Positions 3,200-49,303 of a stretch of 56,048 nt of DNA are shown piece by piece. Both the position numbers and the translations under genes were made by a program. The stretch covers positions 1 through 56,048 of the forward strand of contig JAURVQ010000039.1 of assembly GCA_030655395.1 (NCBI GenBank). The letters run 5' to 3'. Numbering within the stretch: position 1 is the first letter of the stretch; each line of letters opens with the position of its first letter. Under the pieces are notes generated by a model, which worked only from the letters and a program-made list of their open reading frames with translations, did not search any database and was not told where the DNA came from. This DNA comes from Gammaproteobacteria bacterium (lineage in GTDB: Bacteria; Pseudomonadota; Gammaproteobacteria; SURF-13).

Positions 3200-4089
3200 G
3201 CTTCGTTGCCGGGCGGTAATGCGCGCCACGCGGCAAGTGCCGCGTCGGCCTGGTCGGGCGCCAGCACCGCGACCACGCGCCCTTCGCAGGCGAGATAGAG
3301 CGGGTCGTAGCCGAGGATGTCGCACACCGTGCGTACTGCGGCGCGCACCGGGATGGCGCTCTCCTTGAGGTGCAGGCCCAATCCCGTGGCGCGGCAGATG
3401 TCGTGCGCGACGGTGGCAAGCCCGCCGCGCGTCGGGTCGCGCATGAAGCGCAATCCCGGAAATGCATGCAGCGCGTGCGTGAGCGGCAGCACGCAGGCGA
3501 GGTCCGACTGGACGCTGCCGCTCAAGCCGAACTGCTCGCGCGCGAGCATCACGGCAACGGCGTGGTCGCCCACCGGGCCGCTCACCAGAATGACGTCGCC
3601 TTCCTGTATCCGGTTTATGCCCAAGCGCAATTGCGGATCGCGCACGCCGACGCCGCTGGTGGCGAGATACAATCCGCCGCCTTCGCCGCGCGGCACCACC
3701 TTGGTGTCGCCCGCCACTACACACACCCCTGTTTCCCGCGCCGCGCGCGCCAGGCTTTCGACAATGCGGGTGAGTCGCGCGATTTCGAATCCCTCCTCAA
3801 TGAAGGTGTTGAGGCTGAGATAGAGCGGTGTCGCGCCCGCGACGGCAAGATCGTTCACCGTGCCGTGCACCGCAAGCGCACCGATGTCGCCGCCGGGAAA
3901 TTCCAGCGGCTGCACGATGAAGCCATCGGTGGTCAGCATGATGTCTCCCGCAGGCAAGGTGAGCGGGACGGCATCGGCCTGGATATCGAGCGCCGGATTC
4001 GCGAGGTGGCGCGCGAACAGTTCCTCAACCAGTTCGCGCATGTAGCGTCCACCGTTGCCGTGGGCGAGGGTGATGTGGGTATCCTGCAT
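3085..4089 (-). CDS. hypE: Hydrogenase maturation protein HypE
   Basis: MQDTHITLAHGNGG... PurM-like fold sequence and the C-terminal PRIC motif. The ATGA overlaps the hypF stop. Confidence 0.95.
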   Translation of the reverse strand: MQDTHITLAHGNGGRYMRELVEELFARHLANPALDIQADAVPLTLPAGDIMLTTDGFIVQPLEFPGGDIGALAVHGTVNDLAVAGATPLYLSLNTFIEEGFEIARLTRIVESLARAARETGVCVVAGDTKVVPRGEGGGLYLATSGVGVRDPQLRLGINRIQEGDVILVSGPVGDHAVAVMLAREQFGLSGSVQSDLACVLPLTHALHAFPGLRFMRDPTRGGLATVAHDICRATGLGLHLKESAIPVRAAVRTVCDILGYDPLYLACEGRVVAVLAPDQADAALAAWRALPPGNEAAIIGQVTAAKPHVVLETPLGGSRVLQELEDDPLPRIC

Positions 4090-6383
4090 CAGCGCTGTGC
4101 CGCCTCGATGATCTGTCCGTAACTGAGCCCGCCGTCATTGCAGGGGACACGGCGCGGAAGATGGACGGCAAACCCGTCGTCCTGCAACAGCTGCAGCGCG
4201 TGTTCGGTGAGAATGCAGTTTTGAAATACGCCGCCGCTCAGGCCCACGTCGTTTACGCCGTGTTCATCGCGCAACACGCGCGCCTGTTGCAGCAGCGCGT
4301 GCGCGAGGCTCGCGTGAAAAATACTCGCGCGTTCCACGACGGGAATATGTTCATCAAGTAACAGCGGCACGAGCGGCGCCCAGTCGGTGTGCCAGAGGCC
4401 CTGCGCGTTGCGCTGCAACGGCAAGGCGACAGGTTGCGCGCCCGCACTGCTGATCGCCTCCAGAGTCATCGGCCCCTGCCCTTCAAAGCTGGCATTTTGT
4501 ACCAGGCCGAGCAGCGCGGCGGCGGCATCAAACAATCGGCCCACCGCGCTGGTTTGCGGCGCGTTGATGCGCCGTTGCCAAGCGTGCTGCAGCAGCGCGG
4601 TATCTTCCATCGGGCCGTTGAGCCATACCTGATTCGATTCCCAGCACAGGGCGAGCGCGCTGCGCCACGGTTCGCGCGCGGACTTTTCGCCGCCGGGGAG
4701 ATGAAACGGCCGTATGCTGGCCGCGCGCCGCCAGTGCCCGGCGCCGCCCAGCAAGGCCTCGCCGCCCCACAGGGTGCCGTCCTCACCCAGGCCCACACCG
4801 TCCCAGGTAAACACCAGCCAGTTTTTTATCGCGGGGAATTCGCCCGCGACGCCGGAGGCATGTGCGTGATGATGCCAGACCTGCGTCAGCGACAACCCGC
4901 TGCGCCTGTTCCAGCGCCGGGCCCAGCGTGTGCCGGCGTAATCGGGATGCGCATCACACAGGATTTTTTCGGCGCGTACGCCGTAGAGCGCTTGCATATC
5001 TTCGATCACCTGCTCGAATACTTCGAGACCGCGCGGCGTTCCGAGGTCGCCGATGTGCGGCGAGATCACCACGCGGTTGTGCCAGGCGAGCGCAACGGTA
5101 TTTTTGCTGTGACCGCCGGTCGCAAGCACGGGCCGGGACAACTCAAACGGCAGCTCCAGTTCCAGCGGCGCGCAGCCCCGACCGAGGCGCAACGGACGCG
5201 GCTGTCCGGCAATGACGCGAAACACGGCGTCGTCTGCCGGGCGCTGTATGGGGCGGTCGTGATGCAGGAAGGCATCGGCCACGTGCGCGAGGCGCGTTTG
5301 CGCATCACTGTTGTTGGTGAGCACCGGTTCGCCGCTGACATTGGCGGAGGTGGCGACGAGCGGTGCGCCAAAATCCTCGAGCAGCAGATGATGCAAGGGA
5401 CTGTAGGGCAGCAGGGTGCCGATTTCATCCAGGCCGGGCGCGATGTGTGTGGAGAGATTCGCTGCGCTGCGTTTGGTGACGAGCACAATCGGCCGCATGG
5501 GGTCGCGCAGTAGTTGCGCCGCAATCGCGTCGAGTTGTGCCGCCTCACGCACGGCATCAAGGCCGTCTGCCCCATGCATGGGAAACATCACGGCGAGCGG
5601 CTTGTGCGGACGCGGCTTGGTGGTGCGCAACCGCAGCACGGCGTCGTCGTTGCGTGCATCGCACATCAGGTGATAGCCGCCGACACCCTTCACGGCGACG
5701 ATTTTTCCCTCACGCAGTGCGGCCACGCACGCGGCAAGCGCGGCGGCACCGGTGACGGTTTCATCCGCTGCTGTTTTAAACGACAGTTGCGGGCCACACG
5801 CGGGACAGGCGAGCGGCTCGGCATGAAAGCGCCGGTTCAGTGGATTTTGATATTCTGCGCGGCACTGCGCGCACAACGCAAACCCCGCGAGCGTGGTGTT
5901 GCTGCGGTCATAGGGCAGGCGGCAGATGACGGTATAGCGCGGGCCGCATTGGGTACAGTTGATGAAGGGGTAACGGTAGCGGCGGTCGCCGGGATCATGC
6001 AGCTCGGCGAGACAGTCCGCGCAGGTGAAATAATCGGGCGCGAGGTGTATGTGTGCGGGCGCGCATTCCGCGCTCGGCAAAATGCTGAATTGCTCCAGCG
6101 GCTGCGCTGACGCGTATTCACACGACAGTACGCGCGGCTGTGCGAGTGGCGGCGCATCGCTCAACAGCCGATGGCCGAACTGTTCAAGTGATGCGCCGTC
6201 GCCCTGCGCGAATATCTCCACGTGGCCGGAACGGTTCCTCACCCAGCCGCAAAGACCGCAGTGATGTGCGAGACGGTACACGAAGGGACGGAAACCCACG
6301 CCCTGCACGCGCCCCGCCAGCACCCATCTGCGCGCGCAATGGGTAGCGACGGATGCGGGCAATGGCGCTGCGGTCATGGGCAT
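4089..6383 (-). CDS. hypF: Carbamoyltransferase HypF
   Basis: 764 aa with an acylphosphatase-like N-terminus (GRVQGVGFRPFV), two CxxC...CxxC zinc fingers, and YrdC and Kae1-like parts. Confidence 0.95.
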   Translation of the reverse strand: MPMTAAPLPASVATHCARRWVLAGRVQGVGFRPFVYRLAHHCGLCGWVRNRSGHVEIFAQGDGASLEQFGHRLLSDAPPLAQPRVLSCEYASAQPLEQFSILPSAECAPAHIHLAPDYFTCADCLAELHDPGDRRYRYPFINCTQCGPRYTVICRLPYDRSNTTLAGFALCAQCRAEYQNPLNRRFHAEPLACPACGPQLSFKTAADETVTGAAALAACVAALREGKIVAVKGVGGYHLMCDARNDDAVLRLRTTKPRPHKPLAVMFPMHGADGLDAVREAAQLDAIAAQLLRDPMRPIVLVTKRSAANLSTHIAPGLDEIGTLLPYSPLHHLLLEDFGAPLVATSANVSGEPVLTNNSDAQTRLAHVADAFLHHDRPIQRPADDAVFRVIAGQPRPLRLGRGCAPLELELPFELSRPVLATGGHSKNTVALAWHNRVVISPHIGDLGTPRGLEVFEQVIEDMQALYGVRAEKILCDAHPDYAGTRWARRWNRRSGLSLTQVWHHHAHASGVAGEFPAIKNWLVFTWDGVGLGEDGTLWGGEALLGGAGHWRRAASIRPFHLPGGEKSAREPWRSALALCWESNQVWLNGPMEDTALLQHAWQRRINAPQTSAVGRLFDAAAALLGLVQNASFEGQGPMTLEAISSAGAQPVALPLQRNAQGLWHTDWAPLVPLLLDEHIPVVERASIFHASLAHALLQQARVLRDEHGVNDVGLSGGVFQNCILTEHALQLLQDDGFAVHLPRRVPCNDGGLSYGQIIEAAQR

Positions 6384-13388: not shown

Positions 13389-14822
13389 ATGGACATGAGT
13401 CGTCTTGAGAGGCTGGATGAGTACCGCTGGAGCGTGCCGCTCGCTGCGAGCGAAACGCGCGCGCCGGTCTGTCTCTACGGCAGCGAACCGCTGCTTGCCA
13501 GCATGGATGACAAGGTGCTGGAACAGATTACCAATGTAGCGCGGCTCCCCGGCCTGGTCGGCGCCGCGATGACCATGCCCGACGCGCACTGGGGCTACGG
13601 CTTTCCCATCGGCGGTGTCGCCGCCTTCGATGCCGAGCAGGGCGGCATCATCTCCGCGGGCGGCGTGGGGTTCGACATCTCCTGCGGCATCCGCTGCCTG
13701 CGCACCAATCTTGTGATCACCGACATCCTGCCGCAGATGAAAATGCTGGCCGACATCCTGTTTCACACCATCCCCGCCGGCGTGGGCGAAGAAGGCGAGC
13801 TCAAGCTTGCGCCCGCGGAACTCGACCGGGTGCTGGCGGGCGGCGCGCAGTGGGCGGTGAAGCACGGTTACGGTGTGGCGGAAGACCTGGACTATATCGA
13901 GGAGCGCGGCCAGGTGGCGGGCGCGGTGCCGGAGAACGTCTCCGATCATGCCAAGAAACGCCAGCGCGGCGAAATGGGCACGCTGGGTTCCGGCAACCAT
14001 TATCTCGAAGTGCAGGTGGTGGATCGCATTTATGATACGGAGGCGGCGCAGGCCTTTGGCCTGTACGAGGGGCAGGTGGTCGTCTCCATCCACTGCGGCT
14101 CGCGCGGGCTCGGCCATCAGATCGGCACCGAATATCTCATCACGCTCGCCAAGGCCGCGAGCCGTCTGGGCGTCGCACTGCCCGACCGCGAGCTTGCCTG
14201 CGCGCCGATCAATTCACCCGAAGGTCAGCAGTATATCGGCGCGATGAACGCGGCGATCAACTGCGCGCTGGCCAATCGCCAGATACTCGCGCACCTCACG
14301 CGCGAGGCGTTCGCGCGCATCGTGCCCGACGCGCGGCTGGAAACGCTGTTCGATGTTTCGCACAACACCTGCAAGGTGGAGCAGCACAAGGTGGACGGCA
14401 GGCAACGCACGCTCCACGTGCACCGCAAGGGCGCGACGCGCGCCTTCGGCCCCGGTCACCCCGCGCTGCCGGAGCGTTACCGCGCGGTGGGCCAGCCGGT
14501 CATCATCGGCGGCAGCATGGGGACGGGTTCGTATGTGCTGGCCGGCACGCGCGAGAGCGAAACCCGCGCCTGGTCTTCGGCGAGCCACGGCGCGGGCCGC
14601 GCCATGAGCCGCCATCAGGCGCTGCGCCGCTGGAGCGGGCGGCAACTGGTGGATGAACTCGCGGAGCGCGGCATTCTCATCCGCACCCGCTCCATGCGCG
14701 GCGCAGCGGAAGAGGCGCCGGGCGCCTACAAGGATGTGGATCAGGTGGCAGAGGTAACGGAGCAGTCCGGGCTTGCACGCCGCGTGGCCTTTCTGCGCCC
14801 GAAGGCGTGCATCAAGGGTTAA
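13389..14822 (+). CDS. rtcB: RNA 3'-phosphate ligase RtcB
   Basis: GGVGFDISCG, GSGNHYLEVQ, HCGSRGLGHQ, SHGAGR. Confidence 0.95.
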   Translation: MDMSRLERLDEYRWSVPLAASETRAPVCLYGSEPLLASMDDKVLEQITNVARLPGLVGAAMTMPDAHWGYGFPIGGVAAFDAEQGGIISAGGVGFDISCGIRCLRTNLVITDILPQMKMLADILFHTIPAGVGEEGELKLAPAELDRVLAGGAQWAVKHGYGVAEDLDYIEERGQVAGAVPENVSDHAKKRQRGEMGTLGSGNHYLEVQVVDRIYDTEAAQAFGLYEGQVVVSIHCGSRGLGHQIGTEYLITLAKAASRLGVALPDRELACAPINSPEGQQYIGAMNAAINCALANRQILAHLTREAFARIVPDARLETLFDVSHNTCKVEQHKVDGRQRTLHVHRKGATRAFGPGHPALPERYRAVGQPVIIGGSMGTGSYVLAGTRESETRAWSSASHGAGRAMSRHQALRRWSGRQLVDELAERGILIRTRSMRGAAEEAPGAYKDVDQVAEVTEQSGLARRVAFLRPKACIKG

Positions 14823-14838
14823 CGTAGGAGGGAGAGCC

Positions 14839-15486
14839 ATGCTGTTTCAAAACCGCAAGGAAGCCGCACGGCTTCTGGCCGAAAAACTCAAACCGTATCG
14901 CAACAAGAATCCGCTGATACTGGCCATCCCGCGCGGCGCGGTGCCGATGGCGAAAGACATCGCCGCAGCATTACAGGGCGAGATGGACGTCGTGCTGGTG
15001 CGGAAGTTGCGCGCACCGGGCAATCCGGAATTCGCCGTCGGCTCGGTGGACGAGAGCGGCTGGACCTACGTGGCGGACCACGCCGCCGCCGCAGGCGCGA
15101 CGCCGGAGTATATCGAGCAGGAGAAACAGGAGCAGCTTGCGACCATGCGACGCCGCCGCGCGCAGTACACGCCGGTGCATCCGCCCAGTGAGGTGGAAGG
15201 CCGTATCGTCATCGTGGTGGACGATGGCCTGGCCACCGGCGCCACCATGATTTCGGCGCTGCATGCGCTGCGCGCCAAGCAGCCGCAAAAGCTGATTGCG
15301 GCCGTGCCGGTATCGCCGCCGGAAACGCTGCAGAAGGTGACGCAGTACGCCGATGAGGTAGTGTGCCTGCACGCGCCGGAGTATTTTCAGGCCGTGGGCC
15401 AGTTTTACGCCGACTTCCCCCAGGTGGACGATGAAGAAGTGATCGCCCTGCTGCGCGAGAGCAAAACAAGCGCACCGCATGGCTGA
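14839..15486 (+). CDS. Phosphoribosyltransferase-family protein
   Basis: RBS AGGAGGGAG precedes ATG 14839. PRPP-binding loop IVIVVDDGLATGATM. Confidence 0.8.
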   Translation: MLFQNRKEAARLLAEKLKPYRNKNPLILAIPRGAVPMAKDIAAALQGEMDVVLVRKLRAPGNPEFAVGSVDESGWTYVADHAAAAGATPEYIEQEKQEQLATMRRRRAQYTPVHPPSEVEGRIVIVVDDGLATGATMISALHALRAKQPQKLIAAVPVSPPETLQKVTQYADEVVCLHAPEYFQAVGQFYADFPQVDDEEVIALLRESKTSAPHG

Positions 15487-15534: not shown

Positions 15535-15801
15535 ATGTTGCTTCCGACCTTAGGCGAAGCCGAAGAGGACTGGAAAACTCAGATAACCGTGCGGATAACC
15601 TCTGGCGTCCGATTAAGCACGAGCAGAATTGCGGTATTGCTTTGGCATGAGCTCGAGGGTAGGCTATTTAAACTGGTATACGCCAATGGAAGTGAGTCGC
15701 GCCGAGCAGCCGCATCTCAAATCATCGCAATCTTCCATCCCGCACATTCCCGATCTCATGTATTGATGCCAGTGCACAAGAGCCAGCGGTTGAAATCCTA
15801 G
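15535..15801 (+). CDS. Hypothetical protein (weak call)
   Basis: 88-aa ORF in the island with no recognisable motif and no clear RBS. Confidence 0.2.
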   Translation: MLLPTLGEAEEDWKTQITVRITSGVRLSTSRIAVLLWHELEGRLFKLVYANGSESRRAAASQIIAIFHPAHSRSHVLMPVHKSQRLKS

Positions 15802-15814
15802 GGGAGCAAGAGTC

Positions 15815-16009
15815 ATGGCTAAAGCCCACGAGAACAAGGTACGAGAGCAGATCCGCGTCGAATTCGCTAAACATCGCCGTAAAGAGTGTTCAGTTGTGGA
15901 GTCCAGCAAACTCGCCGGGATTTCGCCTTCCACTTACTACGCTTGGAATAAAGGCGATGCGTGGTCGAAGGCGAGCGGCTGGTCAAAAGGGGACGGCTGG
16001 TCAAAATAG
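15815..16009 (+). CDS. Small HTH protein with repetitive C-terminal tail
   Basis: RBS GGGGAG 8 nt upstream. SSKLAGISPSTYYAWNKG resembles transposase-OrfA/Xis-type HTHs. The tail is DAWSK-ASGWSK-GDGWSK. Confidence 0.5.
   Translation: MAKAHENKVREQIRVEFAKHRRKECSVVESSKLAGISPSTYYAWNKGDAWSKASGWSKGDGWSK
15953..16006 (+). repeat. 3 x 18-bp imperfect tandem repeat
   Basis: ggcgatgcgtggtcgaag / gcgagcggctggtcaaaa / ggggacggctggtcaaaa, ending at the ORF stop, 48 nt upstream of the lipoprotein ATG. Confidence 0.8.
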
Positions 16010-16053
16010 TAACTCTTCGGTGCGGTTTCGCAGCGGAATATACGGGGGTACGT

Positions 16054-17373
16054 ATGCGCACATGGCTATGGGTTGGATTTGTCCTCTTGCTTCAGGGCTG
16101 CACAATTTCGCCAAGTACGACGCTACTAAAGGAAAGCTTACCCAATCACAACTTCATCGCCACAGATTCAAGATTGCGCGTCATTTCAACTTCGGAGCAG
16201 TCGATTTTCTCAACGACCGGATCGGTCGATCCGAAGAACATCATCTGCACGGAACCAAGCCCTGATGTAGCGACCACAATCGCCAATTCATTCGGGGTCG
16301 GCGCAAGCATATTGGGCCAAGGCGCGGCCTCGCTCTCCGCGCAGCAGGTTGAAGGGCTTGTCCAACTTGGCGAGCGCACGGCAGCGATTCAATTGCTCAG
16401 AGACAAGATGTATCAAACGTGCGTTGCCTACGCAAATGGGGCGATTTCAGGTACGACCTACAGTCTGCTCATGAGCCGGCTCGATGATTCCATCGTCACC
16501 CTATCCCTTGGTGACGGGGCAGCGGGCGCATTTGGGCGCAAGCTGGCCAGTATCGGAGGGGAGGCATCTGCTAATGCAGACGCCAGCCTAACTGGGTTGC
16601 CCAATGCCCTGTCGACAATCGACGATCAAGCCAAGAAGCTAGCTGCCGCCAACAAGAAAGTGGACGATGCGGCGAGCGATCTCCAATCCCATAATGCGTT
16701 GCAACCCAATGCAGGAAAGGAAAATGACTACAGGGCGGAGACAGCAAAGTTAGAGGCTGCCTTGGTGACAGCCAAGGCCGAACGAGACGCCCTGGTGCAG
16801 CTCATGCAAGGCACGGCAAAATCGGCGTCAGAGGCTTCAGGAAAAATTTCACAATTGCAGGCAGGGGGTGACCTTTCGCCTAAGCCCAATGCGGAAATCT
16901 TGCGCGACATGCAAGCAGATTTTCTCGTGGCCGATATCGGTCGCGAAGTCACGCACGTGTGCATGATCGAATTGGGCTTACGCGGCGATAGTGATACCAA
17001 GAAGGAGATGACGACGCTAACTAGCTTTTTCGAACGGCTCTTTACGGCAGACCCGAATGCAACGTCAGGCGCAAACTACGCGGGTGCAGTTCTCAGGGGC
17101 CGGGATACGGTTTTGACAGACTTTTGCAAGGAGAATTTGTCTTCTTTAGTTACCAAGACCGCAGAGCAATCGCATGAGTATCGTAAGCGCCGCGCACAAC
17201 TCAGTACCGAGGTAGCGACCGCTCGCTACAGTGCCGACACCGCGAAGGCTTCCGCGCAGGATAGAAAGCTTTTTATCGACTCCATCAATCTATGCAAGAG
17301 CGAATTCAAGAACGACGCAAATCGCCAAAATGCGTGTCTTGACCAAGTTATTCCAATTAAAGCTGGTGAATAG
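16054..17373 (+). CDS. Orphan lipoprotein with Ala-rich coiled-coil middle region
   Basis: MRTWLWVGFVLLLQGC is a signal peptide plus lipobox (L-Q-G-C, Cys16). I recognise no family for the mature part. Confidence 0.7.
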   Translation: MRTWLWVGFVLLLQGCTISPSTTLLKESLPNHNFIATDSRLRVISTSEQSIFSTTGSVDPKNIICTEPSPDVATTIANSFGVGASILGQGAASLSAQQVEGLVQLGERTAAIQLLRDKMYQTCVAYANGAISGTTYSLLMSRLDDSIVTLSLGDGAAGAFGRKLASIGGEASANADASLTGLPNALSTIDDQAKKLAAANKKVDDAASDLQSHNALQPNAGKENDYRAETAKLEAALVTAKAERDALVQLMQGTAKSASEASGKISQLQAGGDLSPKPNAEILRDMQADFLVADIGREVTHVCMIELGLRGDSDTKKEMTTLTSFFERLFTADPNATSGANYAGAVLRGRDTVLTDFCKENLSSLVTKTAEQSHEYRKRRAQLSTEVATARYSADTAKASAQDRKLFIDSINLCKSEFKNDANRQNACLDQVIPIKAGE

Positions 17374-17618
17374 GCTCAAGCGCTAGCTAAGCCACCGGCA
17401 AGGCAAAAATAGCGCGTCGCCACTTGAAGGCACGTCGCGACATGCGGCCAGATGAAGATGGTCGAGCATTTCCCCCATAGCAGTCAACCGACCCGTGTTA
17501 GCATTGCATATGCGGACAGATAATCTCAGAGCACTCACACAATGAATCAAGCAGTTATTGTGCATCGGCATGTTCTCAGAACTTCAATAGTCCTGACCGG
17601 CCGGTCTGGTGAATAACT

Positions 17619-17625
17619 GTTAGGC
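17619..17625 (+). repeat. Isolated integron core site GTTAGGC (cassette 5' boundary or degenerate attC end)
   Basis: Perfect GTTRRRY 20 nt upstream of ATG 17645. The upstream sequence does not fold into a symmetric attC. Confidence 0.35.
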
Positions 17626-17644
17626 GTCGCAAGGTTCTCTAACA

Positions 17645-18961
17645 ATGTCCCTTGATCTCCATCCGAACTGTCAAGCTCAGTTACGAACATCGCTTGGCGA
17701 CCAGTTGGCGCACGCCGGCGCTCGCCACGGGATGTTTCTGACGAAAGAGACGTTGCTGTACCTTTTCCTGGCTCAAGCCGCGCTGCCAACGACGGGAAAG
17801 ATTCGCGCCAAGATGTTGAAGCTGGTTGGTGAGGCACCTCTCGTCGACTTTGTCAGCGGAACTCTCGCTCGTGAACTATTCGAGACTCAGGAGTACCAAG
17901 CTGAGGAGGGTCCGGCACCGCTAACTTCCATCCCCGCGTATGTGAATCTTGCAGCGCTAGCTGACCGTCTCGTAGACGACTTCAACTCGCTGCCCTGGAA
18001 ATACACAGTTACAGCCCCTCTTCCAAGCGTCTTCAGTGACGTATTTTGTCCAAACATCGGCAGAGTCACACTCTCCGACACTGTCTCGATATGCCGTGGC
18101 GACGAAGCGTTCGCCAATGAATACCCATTGGCCTCAGGGATCGAGAAACGTGATCAAACAATTGCCGGTGGAGGACTGCTTTCTGGCCTGCTTATTGGAA
18201 ACAAACCCGCTTGGGCGGCCGATCGAGCGTACCTCCAGGTATCTGTCGAGGGCTTCATTGGCAAGTACACGAGCACAGAACCTCTGCTCGATGCAATCGG
18301 AGTTCTCCGAGCTTTCTTTGGCCTCGGTCTCGCTCTGCGCCTTTTCAAGCCTGGGTCTACATATCAGCCGTATCCACAGCGCGAGAAGCTATACATTCAC
18401 CGCAGAGTCAGTGACGCGTGGGTCATTGAGGAGGTGCATGAACTCGAATCGAGGCACTCCGAAACGATCCGTGACTTGAAGCTGCACGATCTCGACGGAG
18501 CGCTCGACACTGACGCCAAGCGCGTGGTATGGATGAACGAGAGACTGTCAGCCATCTCGGCTGTGTTTCGCGCTGGAGAACATGCCCGAAATATTGTACT
18601 AGGCGCCCAATGGCTTCTCGATAGCCATTGCGGAAGTGACGAGCTGCTGCAGTTCGTCCAGGCGGCGGTAGTTGTTGAGATTCTCCTTGGAGGCAAGGCC
18701 TCTTCCGACCTCACCGGGCTTGGTGAGCTCCTATCAAACCGCTGTGCGTACCTTATTGCGACCTCACATGCACAACGAAACGAACTCCTGCAGGACTTTA
18801 GGGATATCTATGAAGTACGATCCAAGATCGTTCACCGTGGGAAAAGTCGTTTGGATCTTGGTGAGCGCACTCTCTTTAACAAGCTACGCTGGATGTGCCG
18901 GCGCATCATTCAAGAAGAAGTCGAACTCCTGGGAAAGGATGGTGCTGGCAGCGATGCCTAA
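17645..18961 (+). CDS. Hypothetical protein with C-terminal HEPN-like domain (Rx4H)
   Basis: The C-terminal ~130 aa is predicted helical, with AVVVEILLG ... IYEVRSKIVHRGK (R392-x4-H397, nt 18818-18835). The N-terminal ~300 aa shows no motif I recognise. The stop codon lies inside the attC inverse core. Confidence 0.7.
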   Translation: MSLDLHPNCQAQLRTSLGDQLAHAGARHGMFLTKETLLYLFLAQAALPTTGKIRAKMLKLVGEAPLVDFVSGTLARELFETQEYQAEEGPAPLTSIPAYVNLAALADRLVDDFNSLPWKYTVTAPLPSVFSDVFCPNIGRVTLSDTVSICRGDEAFANEYPLASGIEKRDQTIAGGGLLSGLLIGNKPAWAADRAYLQVSVEGFIGKYTSTEPLLDAIGVLRAFFGLGLALRLFKPGSTYQPYPQREKLYIHRRVSDAWVIEEVHELESRHSETIRDLKLHDLDGALDTDAKRVVWMNERLSAISAVFRAGEHARNIVLGAQWLLDSHCGSDELLQFVQAAVVVEILLGGKASSDLTGLGELLSNRCAYLIATSHAQRNELLQDFRDIYEVRSKIVHRGKSRLDLGERTLFNKLRWMCRRIIQEEVELLGKDGAGSDA

Positions 18962-19033
18962 CCCTTCTATCGAGCGAACATCCAACAACGGGCTTCGCAC
19001 ACTGTTGGCTGCCGCTCATGTCAAACGTTAGGG
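18956..19033 (+). repeat. Integron attC site (78 nt)
   Basis: GCCTAAC (RYYYAAC) ... GTTAGGG. Inner imperfect pairing is CGAGCG/CGCTC and CCAACA/TGTTGG, with unpaired bases. Confidence 0.7.
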
Positions 19034-19057
19034 CACAAAAAATCAGAGATCAAGAAT

Positions 19058-19747
19058 ATGGAATGGATTTACGTAATATCAGCGATCGCTAGCTCTATCG
19101 CCGCAGTATTAGCTTGGGCTGCAAAGTTGTGGTGGAGCAAGGAGTATGGTGCAGCGAAAGATGAAATTATAAAGGCAAAAGAAGCACAAATAGAGGCGTT
19201 AAAGGGAGAGATTGAAAGCCTTAAAGAAATGACGCCGATGAAGATTCGAGAGTATTTCTTAAGTGTTAGACAGCAGCTTGAAGAGTATAACGATGCCTTG
19301 AATGGTGAGCTGGATGAAGCACGAAAAGAGATTGAAGGAAAAAACGCCGAAATTAAAAAACTTCAGTCGGAAGGGGCGCAAAAGAGCAATGAGGTAGCTA
19401 AATTAGTAAGCGAGAGAGATAAGATAGAGAGCGCTGCTAAAAATCTTGAAACCCAGTTATCTGGGCTTAAAGAAAAACATGAGAGAAAGGATGTGCTCGT
19501 TATGAAACTACAAAAATTTGACACTGAAGCACTAAACAACATGATAAGTAATTACCAGAATTTAAGAAATTCGTTAGCACATTCATCATTGGCCATAGAT
19601 ACAGAAAAATTCTCTAACTTTTACAAAGATTATTTTGAAGCAAGTGCAACTGCTTCCTCCGTGGCAAAAACTTGGTTAGCTATTGAAAAAGCTCACGAAA
19701 CGAAAAACAAAAAAAACAATGACCAAGAAGATGATGACAATAAATAG
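19058..19747 (+). CDS. Membrane-anchored coiled-coil protein (hypothetical)
   Basis: N-terminal TM helix WIYVISAIASSIAAVLAWAAKLWW, followed by heptad-rich Lys/Glu sequence and an acidic tail. Strongly AT-rich codon usage. Confidence 0.65.
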   Translation: MEWIYVISAIASSIAAVLAWAAKLWWSKEYGAAKDEIIKAKEAQIEALKGEIESLKEMTPMKIREYFLSVRQQLEEYNDALNGELDEARKEIEGKNAEIKKLQSEGAQKSNEVAKLVSERDKIESAAKNLETQLSGLKEKHERKDVLVMKLQKFDTEALNNMISNYQNLRNSLAHSSLAIDTEKFSNFYKDYFEASATASSVAKTWLAIEKAHETKNKKNNDQEDDDNK

Positions 19748-19805
19748 CCCTAACACGTCGCTCCACCCGACCTCCTTCGTCGGCGGGTGAGCTTAAACGT
19801 TGAAT
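19748..19805 (+). repeat. Integron attC site (58 nt, aadA-like short type)
   Basis: CCCTAAC acGTCGCTCCACCCGAC ctccttc GTCGGCGGGTGAGC ttaaac GTTGAAT. GTTGAAT fits GTTRRRY. Confidence 0.75.
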
Positions 19806-48979: not shown

Positions 48980-49157
48980 CTCTGTCCTGTGACCTGAGAG
49001 ATTGAACCCCTTCGGTGCCTGACCACGGATATCAGCGGTCAGAACTCTCCAGAATATAGTGCTGTCTACGCGGTCCTTTTGCCTGAGCGTTTCCGGGCGG
49101 TTTGCGCCGTCGGCGTCCGGCACCGGTGCGACGGTGTCAGATCTCTCCCGCGAAGAT
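48980..49157 (-). ncRNA. Tandem glycine riboswitch (two aptamers) leading gcvT
   Basis: The minus strand contains GGGAGAG...CTCAGGCAAAAGGAC (aptamer 1) and CTGGAGAG...CACCGAAGGGG...CTCTCAGG..ACAGGACAG (aptamer 2). These are hallmark conserved segments in the expected position. Confidence 0.85.
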
Positions 49158-49303
49158 CAAGCCTACTATACCGTGCGCGTGCGGTGAATCCAAGCCAAAT
49201 TGCTCAACCCGGTGCGACAAAAAATCCGCCGTAACTGCTATCCACAGTTGACAGATGTTGCGCCGCTGTTGAAGATGTAGGCAATCTGACCCCGGGAGGC
49301 CCC

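Follow-up and report, generated by a model that had tools for sequence, protein, structure and literature searches.

ApeA, reportedly introduced by Gao et al. 2020 and covered in Pfam by HEPN_Apea (PF18739) together with ApeA_NTD1, is among the closest described counterparts of the gene cassette analyzed here. The cassette lies at 17620-19028 on the forward strand of a contig from a Gammaproteobacteria bacterium (GTDB lineage SURF-13; assembly GCA_030655395.1, contig JAURVQ010000039.1); that whole stretch of 56,048 nt is called the window, and positions given without another locus name refer to it. The single open reading frame (ORF) of the cassette (17645-18961, +) runs from ATG to TAA and encodes a protein of 438 amino acids (aa). 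ApeA likewise is one protein, with an HEPN domain at its C-terminus, and ligand binding in a pocket between its N-terminal and HEPN domains switches on tRNA anticodon cleavage and abortive infection (10.64898/2026.01.26.701840).

Single-protein HEPN defense systems form a recognized group that includes ApeA, AbiD/F/J/U2/V, PD-T4-5, PD-T7-3, PrrC and RloC (10.1101/2024.10.26.620412). Integron cassettes, too, are an established store of defense genes: Taranis and Esos are single-gene HEPN-type attC cassettes of V. cholerae that protect against phages and bring growth arrest or death on infection, and an AbiU2 cassette is known from V. mimicus (10.1101/2024.07.02.601686; 10.64898/2026.03.17.712381). 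Anantharaman et al. 2013 described an 'Integron cassette HEPN' family (PDB 3jrt) with the Rx4-6H motif, found in integron cassettes in Gammaproteobacteria and listed in their table as a mobile integron element with no domain fusions (PMC3710099). HepT toxins of HEPN-MNT type II toxin-antitoxin pairs (e.g. SO_3166, PDB 5yep) are minimal four-helix HEPN RNases, again with an Rx4-6H motif.

The cassette protein is similar in design to ApeA and is not a member of that family. The likeness is that of a single autonomous gene encoding an N-terminal domain and a C-terminal HEPN(-like) domain. The differences begin at the sequence level, where the window protein had no PF18739, ApeA_NTD1 or PADLOC match at E <= 10, and where no ApeA-type match appeared among 43 family members scanned with Pfam or 8 scanned with PADLOC. 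They extend to size and architecture: the HEPN region of Ec2ApeA alone spans residues 335-583 while the whole cassette protein has 438 aa, and ApeA is mostly helical with an N-terminal/Mid/split-HEPN arrangement, whereas the cassette protein combines an alpha/beta N-terminal domain (seven strands) with a compact HEPN-like bundle.

With Taranis and Esos our locus has in common a single-ORF attC cassette and an HEPN-type effector, predicted in our case, but unlike systems of that type the protein has no Abi_C or AbiU2 Pfam match. Scanning one genome per species with the two most conserved peptides of the family found no V. cholerae locus, which argues against close kinship with Esos. The 3jrt family is likewise matched in its HEPN(-like) domain, its conserved Rx4-6H motif and its carriage in integron cassettes; our family differs from it in adding an N-terminal domain of 285 aa and in a much wider taxonomic spread, and 3jrt is absent from the top 50 Foldseek matches of our C-terminal model. 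For HepT, 5yep is among the better-superposing Foldseek matches, but HepT toxins need an adjacent MNT antitoxin gene, whereas the ORFs flanking the gene here have no nucleotidyltransferase domain and supply no conserved partner. What is new is the family itself and its N-terminal domain; single-gene HEPN defense proteins and integron defense cassettes are already established. A self-regulated HEPN protein with no partner had been called unusual in the first-pass annotation of this DNA, a view that we drop because of the precedents: ApeA has the same design, and Taranis and Esos are single-gene HEPN cassettes.

From its sequence the gene is a credible candidate for a one-protein phage-defense or toxin module. 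Our preferred reading, which as a complete chain we rate at a little better than even, is that of a self-contained HEPN RNase that would be held off by its N-terminal domain, released by a trigger, and would then abort infection. Its C-terminal domain (aa ~290-435) would be an HEPN-type metal-independent endoribonuclease. The N-terminal alpha/beta domain (aa 1-285) would pack on the HEPN domain, as the high global score of the structural model suggests, and would keep the nuclease off until the arrival of a trigger, which is most likely a molecule or protein that comes from a phage. By cutting tRNA, mRNA or rRNA, the nuclease would arrest translation and so lead to abortive infection, on a design like that of ApeA with an unrelated sensor domain. 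A bolder version holds that the 285-aa domain is a new infection sensor, which would free a compact HEPN RNase on binding a small molecule or protein made by a phage, making the family, whose protein moves by itself on a 1.4-kb cassette and occurs in many phyla, a widespread and fully self-contained one-protein immune module whose trigger is novel among HEPN systems; we advance that version tentatively, as a possibility with the odds somewhat against it.

The locus is a promoterless single-ORF mobile integron gene cassette of 1,409 nt (17620-19028, +), made of a 25-nt leader, the ORF and its own 78-nt attC site (18956-19033, +). On the left, a GTTAGGC core (R'; 17619-17625, +), located from the sequence and by pattern search, closes the preceding recombination site; crossover between G17619 and T17620 gives the left boundary, and 19 nt separate this core from the ATG. 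On the right, the TAA stop (18959-18961) falls inside the inverse core GCCTAAC (18956-18962) of the attC, whose core is GTTAGGG (19027-19033). The unit follows the cassette rule, running from the TTRRRY after the G of the preceding core to the G of its own attC core, with limits G/TTAGGC at 17619/17620 and CAAACG/TT at 19028 (the slash marks the crossover).

Homologous copies set the same limits. At a locus from another sample that encodes an 88%-identical protein (L042), the DNA matches the window between 17620 and ~19030, where identity per 30-nt bin is 0.73-1.0 and in most bins at least 0.83; outside 17620-19030 it is at background, about 0.4-0.7 per bin. The left junction GTTAGGCG is common to the window, L042 and a second relative, L043 (73% identical protein; also from another sample), and further upstream all three are unrelated. 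On the right, the homologous stretch takes in the attC as far as ...CATGTCAAAC and ends at the crossover at 19028. Since homology to L042 and L043 is bounded by core sites, the mobile unit is the 1,409-nt single-ORF cassette. The database gene call for the contig starts at M30 (409 aa); residues M1, L3, H6 and C9 are conserved in homologues whose alignment begins at residue 1, which shows the start giving 438 aa to be correct and the M30 call to be truncated. There is no promoter-like site ahead of the ORF within the cassette, and Rfam and tRNA scans returned nothing at the cassette locus.

The bottom strand of the attC folds as a single hairpin (-16 kcal/mol, z = -2.3) in which 6 of the 7 positions of GCCTAAC are paired with GTTAGGG and which has an inner stem. 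This stem of 10 pairs is kept in four homologous attC copies, with compensatory changes at 3 of the 10 pairs, and the 5' arm, TAACCCTTC[T/A]ATCGAG, also occurs in the cassette of a 61%-identical homologue. A crude detector of AAC...GTT hairpins gave about one candidate start per 1.1 kb scanned, by which measure the cassette hairpin alone is not exceptional; a naive scan of the window of this kind was set aside as having no discrimination, because GC-rich coding sequence swamps the signal. With a stricter detector, 5 of 34 family loci have an attC-like start at the stop codon, where the background is 3.5% (P = 0.006); the count is a lower bound, since sites that the eye can pick out in L009 and L011 escape the detector. 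Taken by itself the hairpin is no more than mildly unusual, and it is the comparison with homologues that is decisive for the cassette. The first-pass annotation had proposed a cassette-borne gene with its TAA inside the GCCTAAC of a 78-nt attC; the sequence agrees on the stop and the site, and the homology limits and compensatory stem changes bear out the cassette. It had also placed the ORF start 20 nt after a GTTAGGC core, where the core and the geometry stand and the spacing is corrected to 19 nt.

The homologous attC sites of the two closest homologues, L042 (3046-3122) and L043 (4843-4916), keep the inner stem and have decayed at the core triplets: the inverse core AAC has become AAT in both, and the core GTT has become GAT in L042 and TTT in L043. 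Judging from these changes, the L042 and L043 cassette copies are probably no longer mobile.

A search upstream of the window cassette gave no convincing inverse-core partner for the GTTAGGC at 17619-17625. Positions 17575-17625 form a 51-nt imperfect palindrome, with arms AAC-TTCA-ATAGT-CCTGACCGG and CCGGTCTGG-TGAA-TAACT-GTT, in which no GCCTAAC partner occurs. As an upstream attC this palindrome is unconvincing, its bulges being offset; the site may be a degenerate, atypical or minimal attC.

Family members elsewhere also occur singly and often on mobile DNA. Clustering all ORFs within 6 kb of the gene at 35 loci gave no conserved neighbor; the one exception is shared gene order in related Methylobacterium genomes, in which the family member is followed by a tyrosine-recombinase-like gene. 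The lack of a conserved neighbor and the single-ORF cassette together indicate that the gene works alone; the earlier remark that no partner gene is adjacent thus holds in the window, and now across the 35 loci and for a cassette that fits only one ORF. Many members have attC sites beside them. A ..TAAC inverse core takes in the stop codon of the copies from the window, Vibrio orientalis, Alteromonas, one deltaproteobacterial genome bin and one gammaproteobacterial genome bin, and attC repeats flank the gene in Gracilimonas, in Alteromonas and in L011. In L011 the gene stands directly upstream of genes for a type I HsdR and for PDC-M55C/HEC-05, and the nearest two neighbors on either side at other loci include strong matches to AbiO, Nhi, pAgo and PDC-S35. 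Full-length members are carried by five IMG/VR viral contigs; tblastn of a phage collection gave no match.

Such carriage on several kinds of mobile element (attC cassettes, prophage contigs and, for relatives described below, phage-plasmids) would also suit a self-contained addiction or stabilization toxin, which its N-terminal domain or a labile fold would restrain in cis and whose main task would be to stabilize the array, prophage or plasmid around it and not to sense phages. Chromosomal integrons do hold many array-stabilizing toxin-antitoxin cassettes (10.1101/2024.07.02.601686), and HEPN toxins are known from HEPN-MNT pairs (PMC3710099). However, the 1,409-nt cassette contains no antitoxin gene and has no space for one, and post-segregational killing needs a labile, separately made antidote, which is hard for a single polypeptide to provide. 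Toxin-antitoxin cassettes of Vibrio, moreover, give weak promoters within arrays (10.1101/2024.07.02.601686), whereas the window cassette has no promoter-like site. We consider an addiction role unlikely.

Two observations concern individual loci. In Vibrio orientalis (L001 6618-9317) the family member is preceded by a 410-aa gene of the YaaC family (PF14175), which we take to be part of the HEPN clan, and each of the two genes is preceded by a copy of the same 32-nt repeat, which suggests two neighboring cassettes with HEPN-type proteins. The integrase beside this copy has no relative in the window or at the other loci. In a Melioribacteraceae locus (L031) a block at 3300-4550, ~3.5 kb upstream of the family member, is dense in short tandem and interspersed repeats, with periodic 7-8-nt units of the TTGATAC/TTGTTTC type and 23-nt units.

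The family is large and keeps its length. A phmmer search of the 438-aa protein against 1.84 billion representative proteins, in clusters at 50% identity, returned 1,322 clusters at E < 1e-3 and 394 at E < 1e-30; among the best 150 clusters listed, almost every one matches end to end at ~430 aa, full-length homologues holding constant at about 430-440 aa. Genome matches come from Proteobacteria, Acidobacteriota, Planctomycetota, Bdellovibrionota, Verrucomicrobiota and Bacteroidota-related lineages. The window protein itself has no match in Pfam, NCBIfam or PADLOC models, so that its uncharacterized status, as far as PADLOC defense models go, stands as first annotated. Among the 43 aligned members nothing credible was found in Pfam. 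One model, CDH1_2_SANT_HL1, recurred in 27 of the 43 over EILLG...NRCAYLI, with a best E of 9e-4 that is far below its cut-off, and was treated as spurious.

Conservation was measured in 250 full-length members, which are 30-100% identical to the query (median 42%). It concentrates at the C-terminus, where mean column conservation is 0.70-0.75, against 0.34-0.58 in the N-terminal part, and residues 321-400 form the most conserved block. E345 is kept in 250 of 250 members (100%), as is R366 (100%); R392 is kept in 249 (99.6%), H397 in 248 (99.2%), G399 in 99.6%, R378 in 99%, S393 in 98%, and N365 and Y369 each in 97%. The R392-x4-H397 pair is also invariant in the 43-sequence alignment. Three Rx4-6H strings occur in the protein where 2.2 are expected from composition, and R392/H397 is the only conserved one.

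We built an AlphaFold2 model with the 43-sequence alignment. The full-length model is confident and compact (predicted local distance difference test score 89.5, predicted template-modeling score 0.90), and a model of the C-terminal domain by itself scores 89.3 on the former scale. The N-terminal domain (aa 1 to ~285; 17645-18499, +) comprises 7 strands and ~11 helices; it is family-specific and is proposed to be a regulatory or sensor domain. Its 285 aa have no match in Pfam, in PDB sequences, in PDB folds or in BFVD, and the full model drew no significant Foldseek match in PDB or BFVD. The last ~145 aa are helical, and form the candidate HEPN-like domain (aa ~290-435; 18512-18949, +) with helices at 290-309, 311-326, 333-348, 359-371, 375-398 and 405-435.

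In the predicted structure, the candidate Rx4H catalytic motif, R392-S-K-I-V-H397 (codons at 18818-18835, +; R392 at 18818-18820 and H397 at 18833-18835), sits at the C-terminal end of the penultimate helix, 375-398, and is followed by a loop (399-404) and the last helix. HEPN domains carry Rx4-6H at the end of helix 3 (PMC3710099), and in the model R392/H397 would occupy just that position in the bundle. A conserved acidic residue in helix 2 is frequent among HEPN families, often as Ex3[KR] (PMC3710099). E345 (codon 18677-18679, +), in the EILLG motif at the end of helix 333-348, supplies such a residue and is on conservation and model a candidate second active-site residue; its spacing to the conserved K351 is E-x5-K, not E-x3-K. 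The helix that E345 closes would then be HEPN helix 2. The NRCAYLI helix at 359-371 fits, on the model, the variable insert that HEPN domains have between helices 2 and 3 (PMC3710099).

Foldseek searches with the C-terminal model point the same way. The best template-modeling (TM) scores (0.41-0.57) and the lowest root-mean-square deviations (rmsd) belong to HEPN entries, namely 2hsb, 4nqf, 5yep (HepT), 6tug (Csm6), 1ufb and 1ylm, with 2hsb matched at probability 0.89, TM 0.49/0.57 and rmsd 4.3; non-HEPN matches mostly have TM ~0.2-0.3. Some members are labeled 'HEPN' or 'Apea-like HEPN' by NCBI, UniRef and JGI. A Pfam scan of the members so labeled, seeking the underlying model, gave two sub-threshold matches to PF18739 HEPN_Apea (E = 0.1-0.2), in 2 of 8 family fragments, and nothing else. 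Scanning 8 members with PADLOC gave weak echoes of the DzbB C-terminus (5e-4) and Csx1 (5e-3). A C-terminal profile search for other architectures recovered fragments of the same family only.

Several observations weigh against the preferred reading, and the HEPN assignment is not statistically secure. No Pfam HEPN model scores above threshold, for the window protein or for full-length members, and PDB sequence searches with full-length and C-terminal profiles gave nothing meaningful. All Foldseek E-values exceed 0.1, and the match ranked first is vinculin tail. Helical bundles mismatch easily. R392 is followed by Ser in 98% of members and not by N, D or H, which are typical, though not obligatory, directly after the Arg in HEPN domains (PMC3710099). 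The neighbors of family genes are mostly ordinary or uncharacterized, no Pfam family occurring in more than 2 of 133 of them. Finally, the cassette lacks its own promoter and the window an integron Pc, so this cassette copy may be silent.

Part of this evidence would be explained if the C-terminal domain were non-catalytic, either an unrelated helical bundle or an HEPN-like module that binds ligands or nucleic acids, with the Arg and His serving binding or structure. The want of a significant profile or fold match, the atypical Ser, and the ease with which Rx4-6H strings arise by chance in a protein of this composition would all be in keeping with such a domain. Against it, R392, H397, E345 and R366 stay nearly invariant in members with as little as 30% identity, the motif stands at its canonical place in the bundle, the best-superposing Foldseek matches are six different HEPN entries, and independent pipelines label members HEPN. 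We judge a non-catalytic domain distinctly improbable.

On balance the C-terminal domain very probably has the HEPN fold, and catalytic competence is somewhat less likely than the fold. As an HEPN RNase, a dimer would probably form a composite active site from R392 and H397, with E345, N365 and R366 nearby, and its cleavage products would probably carry 2',3'-cyclic phosphate ends, as for other HEPN enzymes. The first-pass annotation had proposed an HEPN-type RNase with a helical C-terminus carrying R392-x4-H397 and an N-terminal ~300 aa that it could not match, and had suggested profile, structure and conservation checks. The helical C-terminus, the near-invariant motif in 250 members, and the unmatched N-terminal ~285 aa are all upheld. 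The proposal of an HEPN-type RNase gains from motif conservation and the helix-3 position and loses from the lack of a significant Pfam or Foldseek match, with RNase activity itself standing as a prediction; in the profile check no Pfam HEPN model reached threshold, and in the structural check HEPN entries superposed best, at E-values all above 0.1.

A set of relatives ties the C-terminal domain to phage-plasmids. SSU5-like phage-plasmids (~110 kb) of Klebsiella, Enterobacter and Cronobacter encode a 'HEPN domain-containing protein', e.g. WP_048255544.1 from Klebsiella, of 390-399 aa (L040 4725-5897; L041 2152-3351). Its C-terminal domain is homologous to that of the cassette family (32% identity over 133 aa, BLASTP 1e-18) and has in common with it the motifs E..LLG, RC.YLI and RS.IVH, whereas its N-terminus is different and shorter. 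A shared C-terminal domain with a different N-terminus suggests a conserved effector paired with interchangeable N-terminal domains. The phage-plasmid gene is a lone one, on the opposite strand to the phage genes, between a partition-ATPase-like gene and tail-fiber genes. Searching from this relative gave a small family of 8 proteins, none with a Pfam domain.

In the window the cassette lies in an island at 15.5-20.3 kb with a GC content of 38-58%, against about 59-72% in the flanks, and seems to belong to a three-cassette attC array (15548-19805) with no detected integrase. The array may start at 15548, where there is a C/TTAGGCG junction. The proposed members on either side of our cassette are cassette A (15549-17619) and cassette C (19029-19799), and a second attC-like site, of 59 nt (19747-19805), begins at the stop codon of the ORF at 19058-19747. 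A tblastn search with IntI1 found no match in the 56-kb window at E <= 0.01, and no complete integron platform (intI, attI and Pc beside the array) was found in the window; given the lack of an integrase match there, the locus is best described as a short attC cluster without integrase. The array is flanked by a phosphoribosyltransferase gene and a dodecin gene, and a secondary GTT site may have been its point of insertion.

Upstream of the cassette, an ORF of 470 aa (15961-17373, +) has no Pfam match; if begun at M32 it opens MRTWLWVGFVLLLQGC, which resembles a lipoprotein signal with a lipobox. Its 5' end is overlapped by a 64-aa ORF (15815-16009) with weak helix-turn-helix-like matches. The ORF of the next cassette (19058-19747, +) encodes 229 aa, hydrophobic in an N-terminal segment, with a long coiled coil and an acidic tail; at just ~38%, its GC content is far under that of the host, and its Pfam matches are weak and of coiled-coil type. 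Elsewhere in the window, a glycine riboswitch aptamer (49061-49160, -; Rfam RF00504, 64 bits, E = 5e-11) is unrelated to the cassette.

Just left of the island, 13389-15486 (+) holds the phosphoribosyltransferase gene and one for an RtcB RNA ligase (Pfam E = 1.9e-169). RtcB seals 2',3'-cyclic-phosphate and 5'-OH ends, such as HEPN RNases make. The RtcB gene is 2.8 kb upstream of the 438-aa ORF and about 0.7 kb left of the low-GC island; as it lies outside both island and cassette, and the array is an insertion, this proximity is probably accidental. An enzyme unlinked to phage, whether an RNase for stress or dormancy or one that processes RNA, that would cut RNA under stress to slow translation, a role proposed by Anantharaman et al. 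for integron-borne HEPN domains (PMC3710099) and one that the nearby RtcB gene and the mostly non-defense neighbors could be taken to favor, is very unlikely, because the patchy spread across phyla and the mobile carriage fit an accessory conflict gene better and the RtcB proximity is probably chance.

If the preferred reading, a self-contained HEPN RNase restrained by its own N-terminal domain, is confirmed, a large and phylogenetically broad family (more than 1,300 clusters at 50% identity, with no model in Pfam, NCBIfam or PADLOC) would join the one-protein HEPN abortive-infection systems. The family is a well-founded candidate for that group and not a surprise. It would also provide a clean example of a potentially toxic nuclease moving as a single promoterless integron cassette, and a nuclease that moves alone in this way must carry its own safety catch. 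The N-terminal domain is the point of interest, and the signal that it senses would extend the short list of triggers of HEPN effectors.

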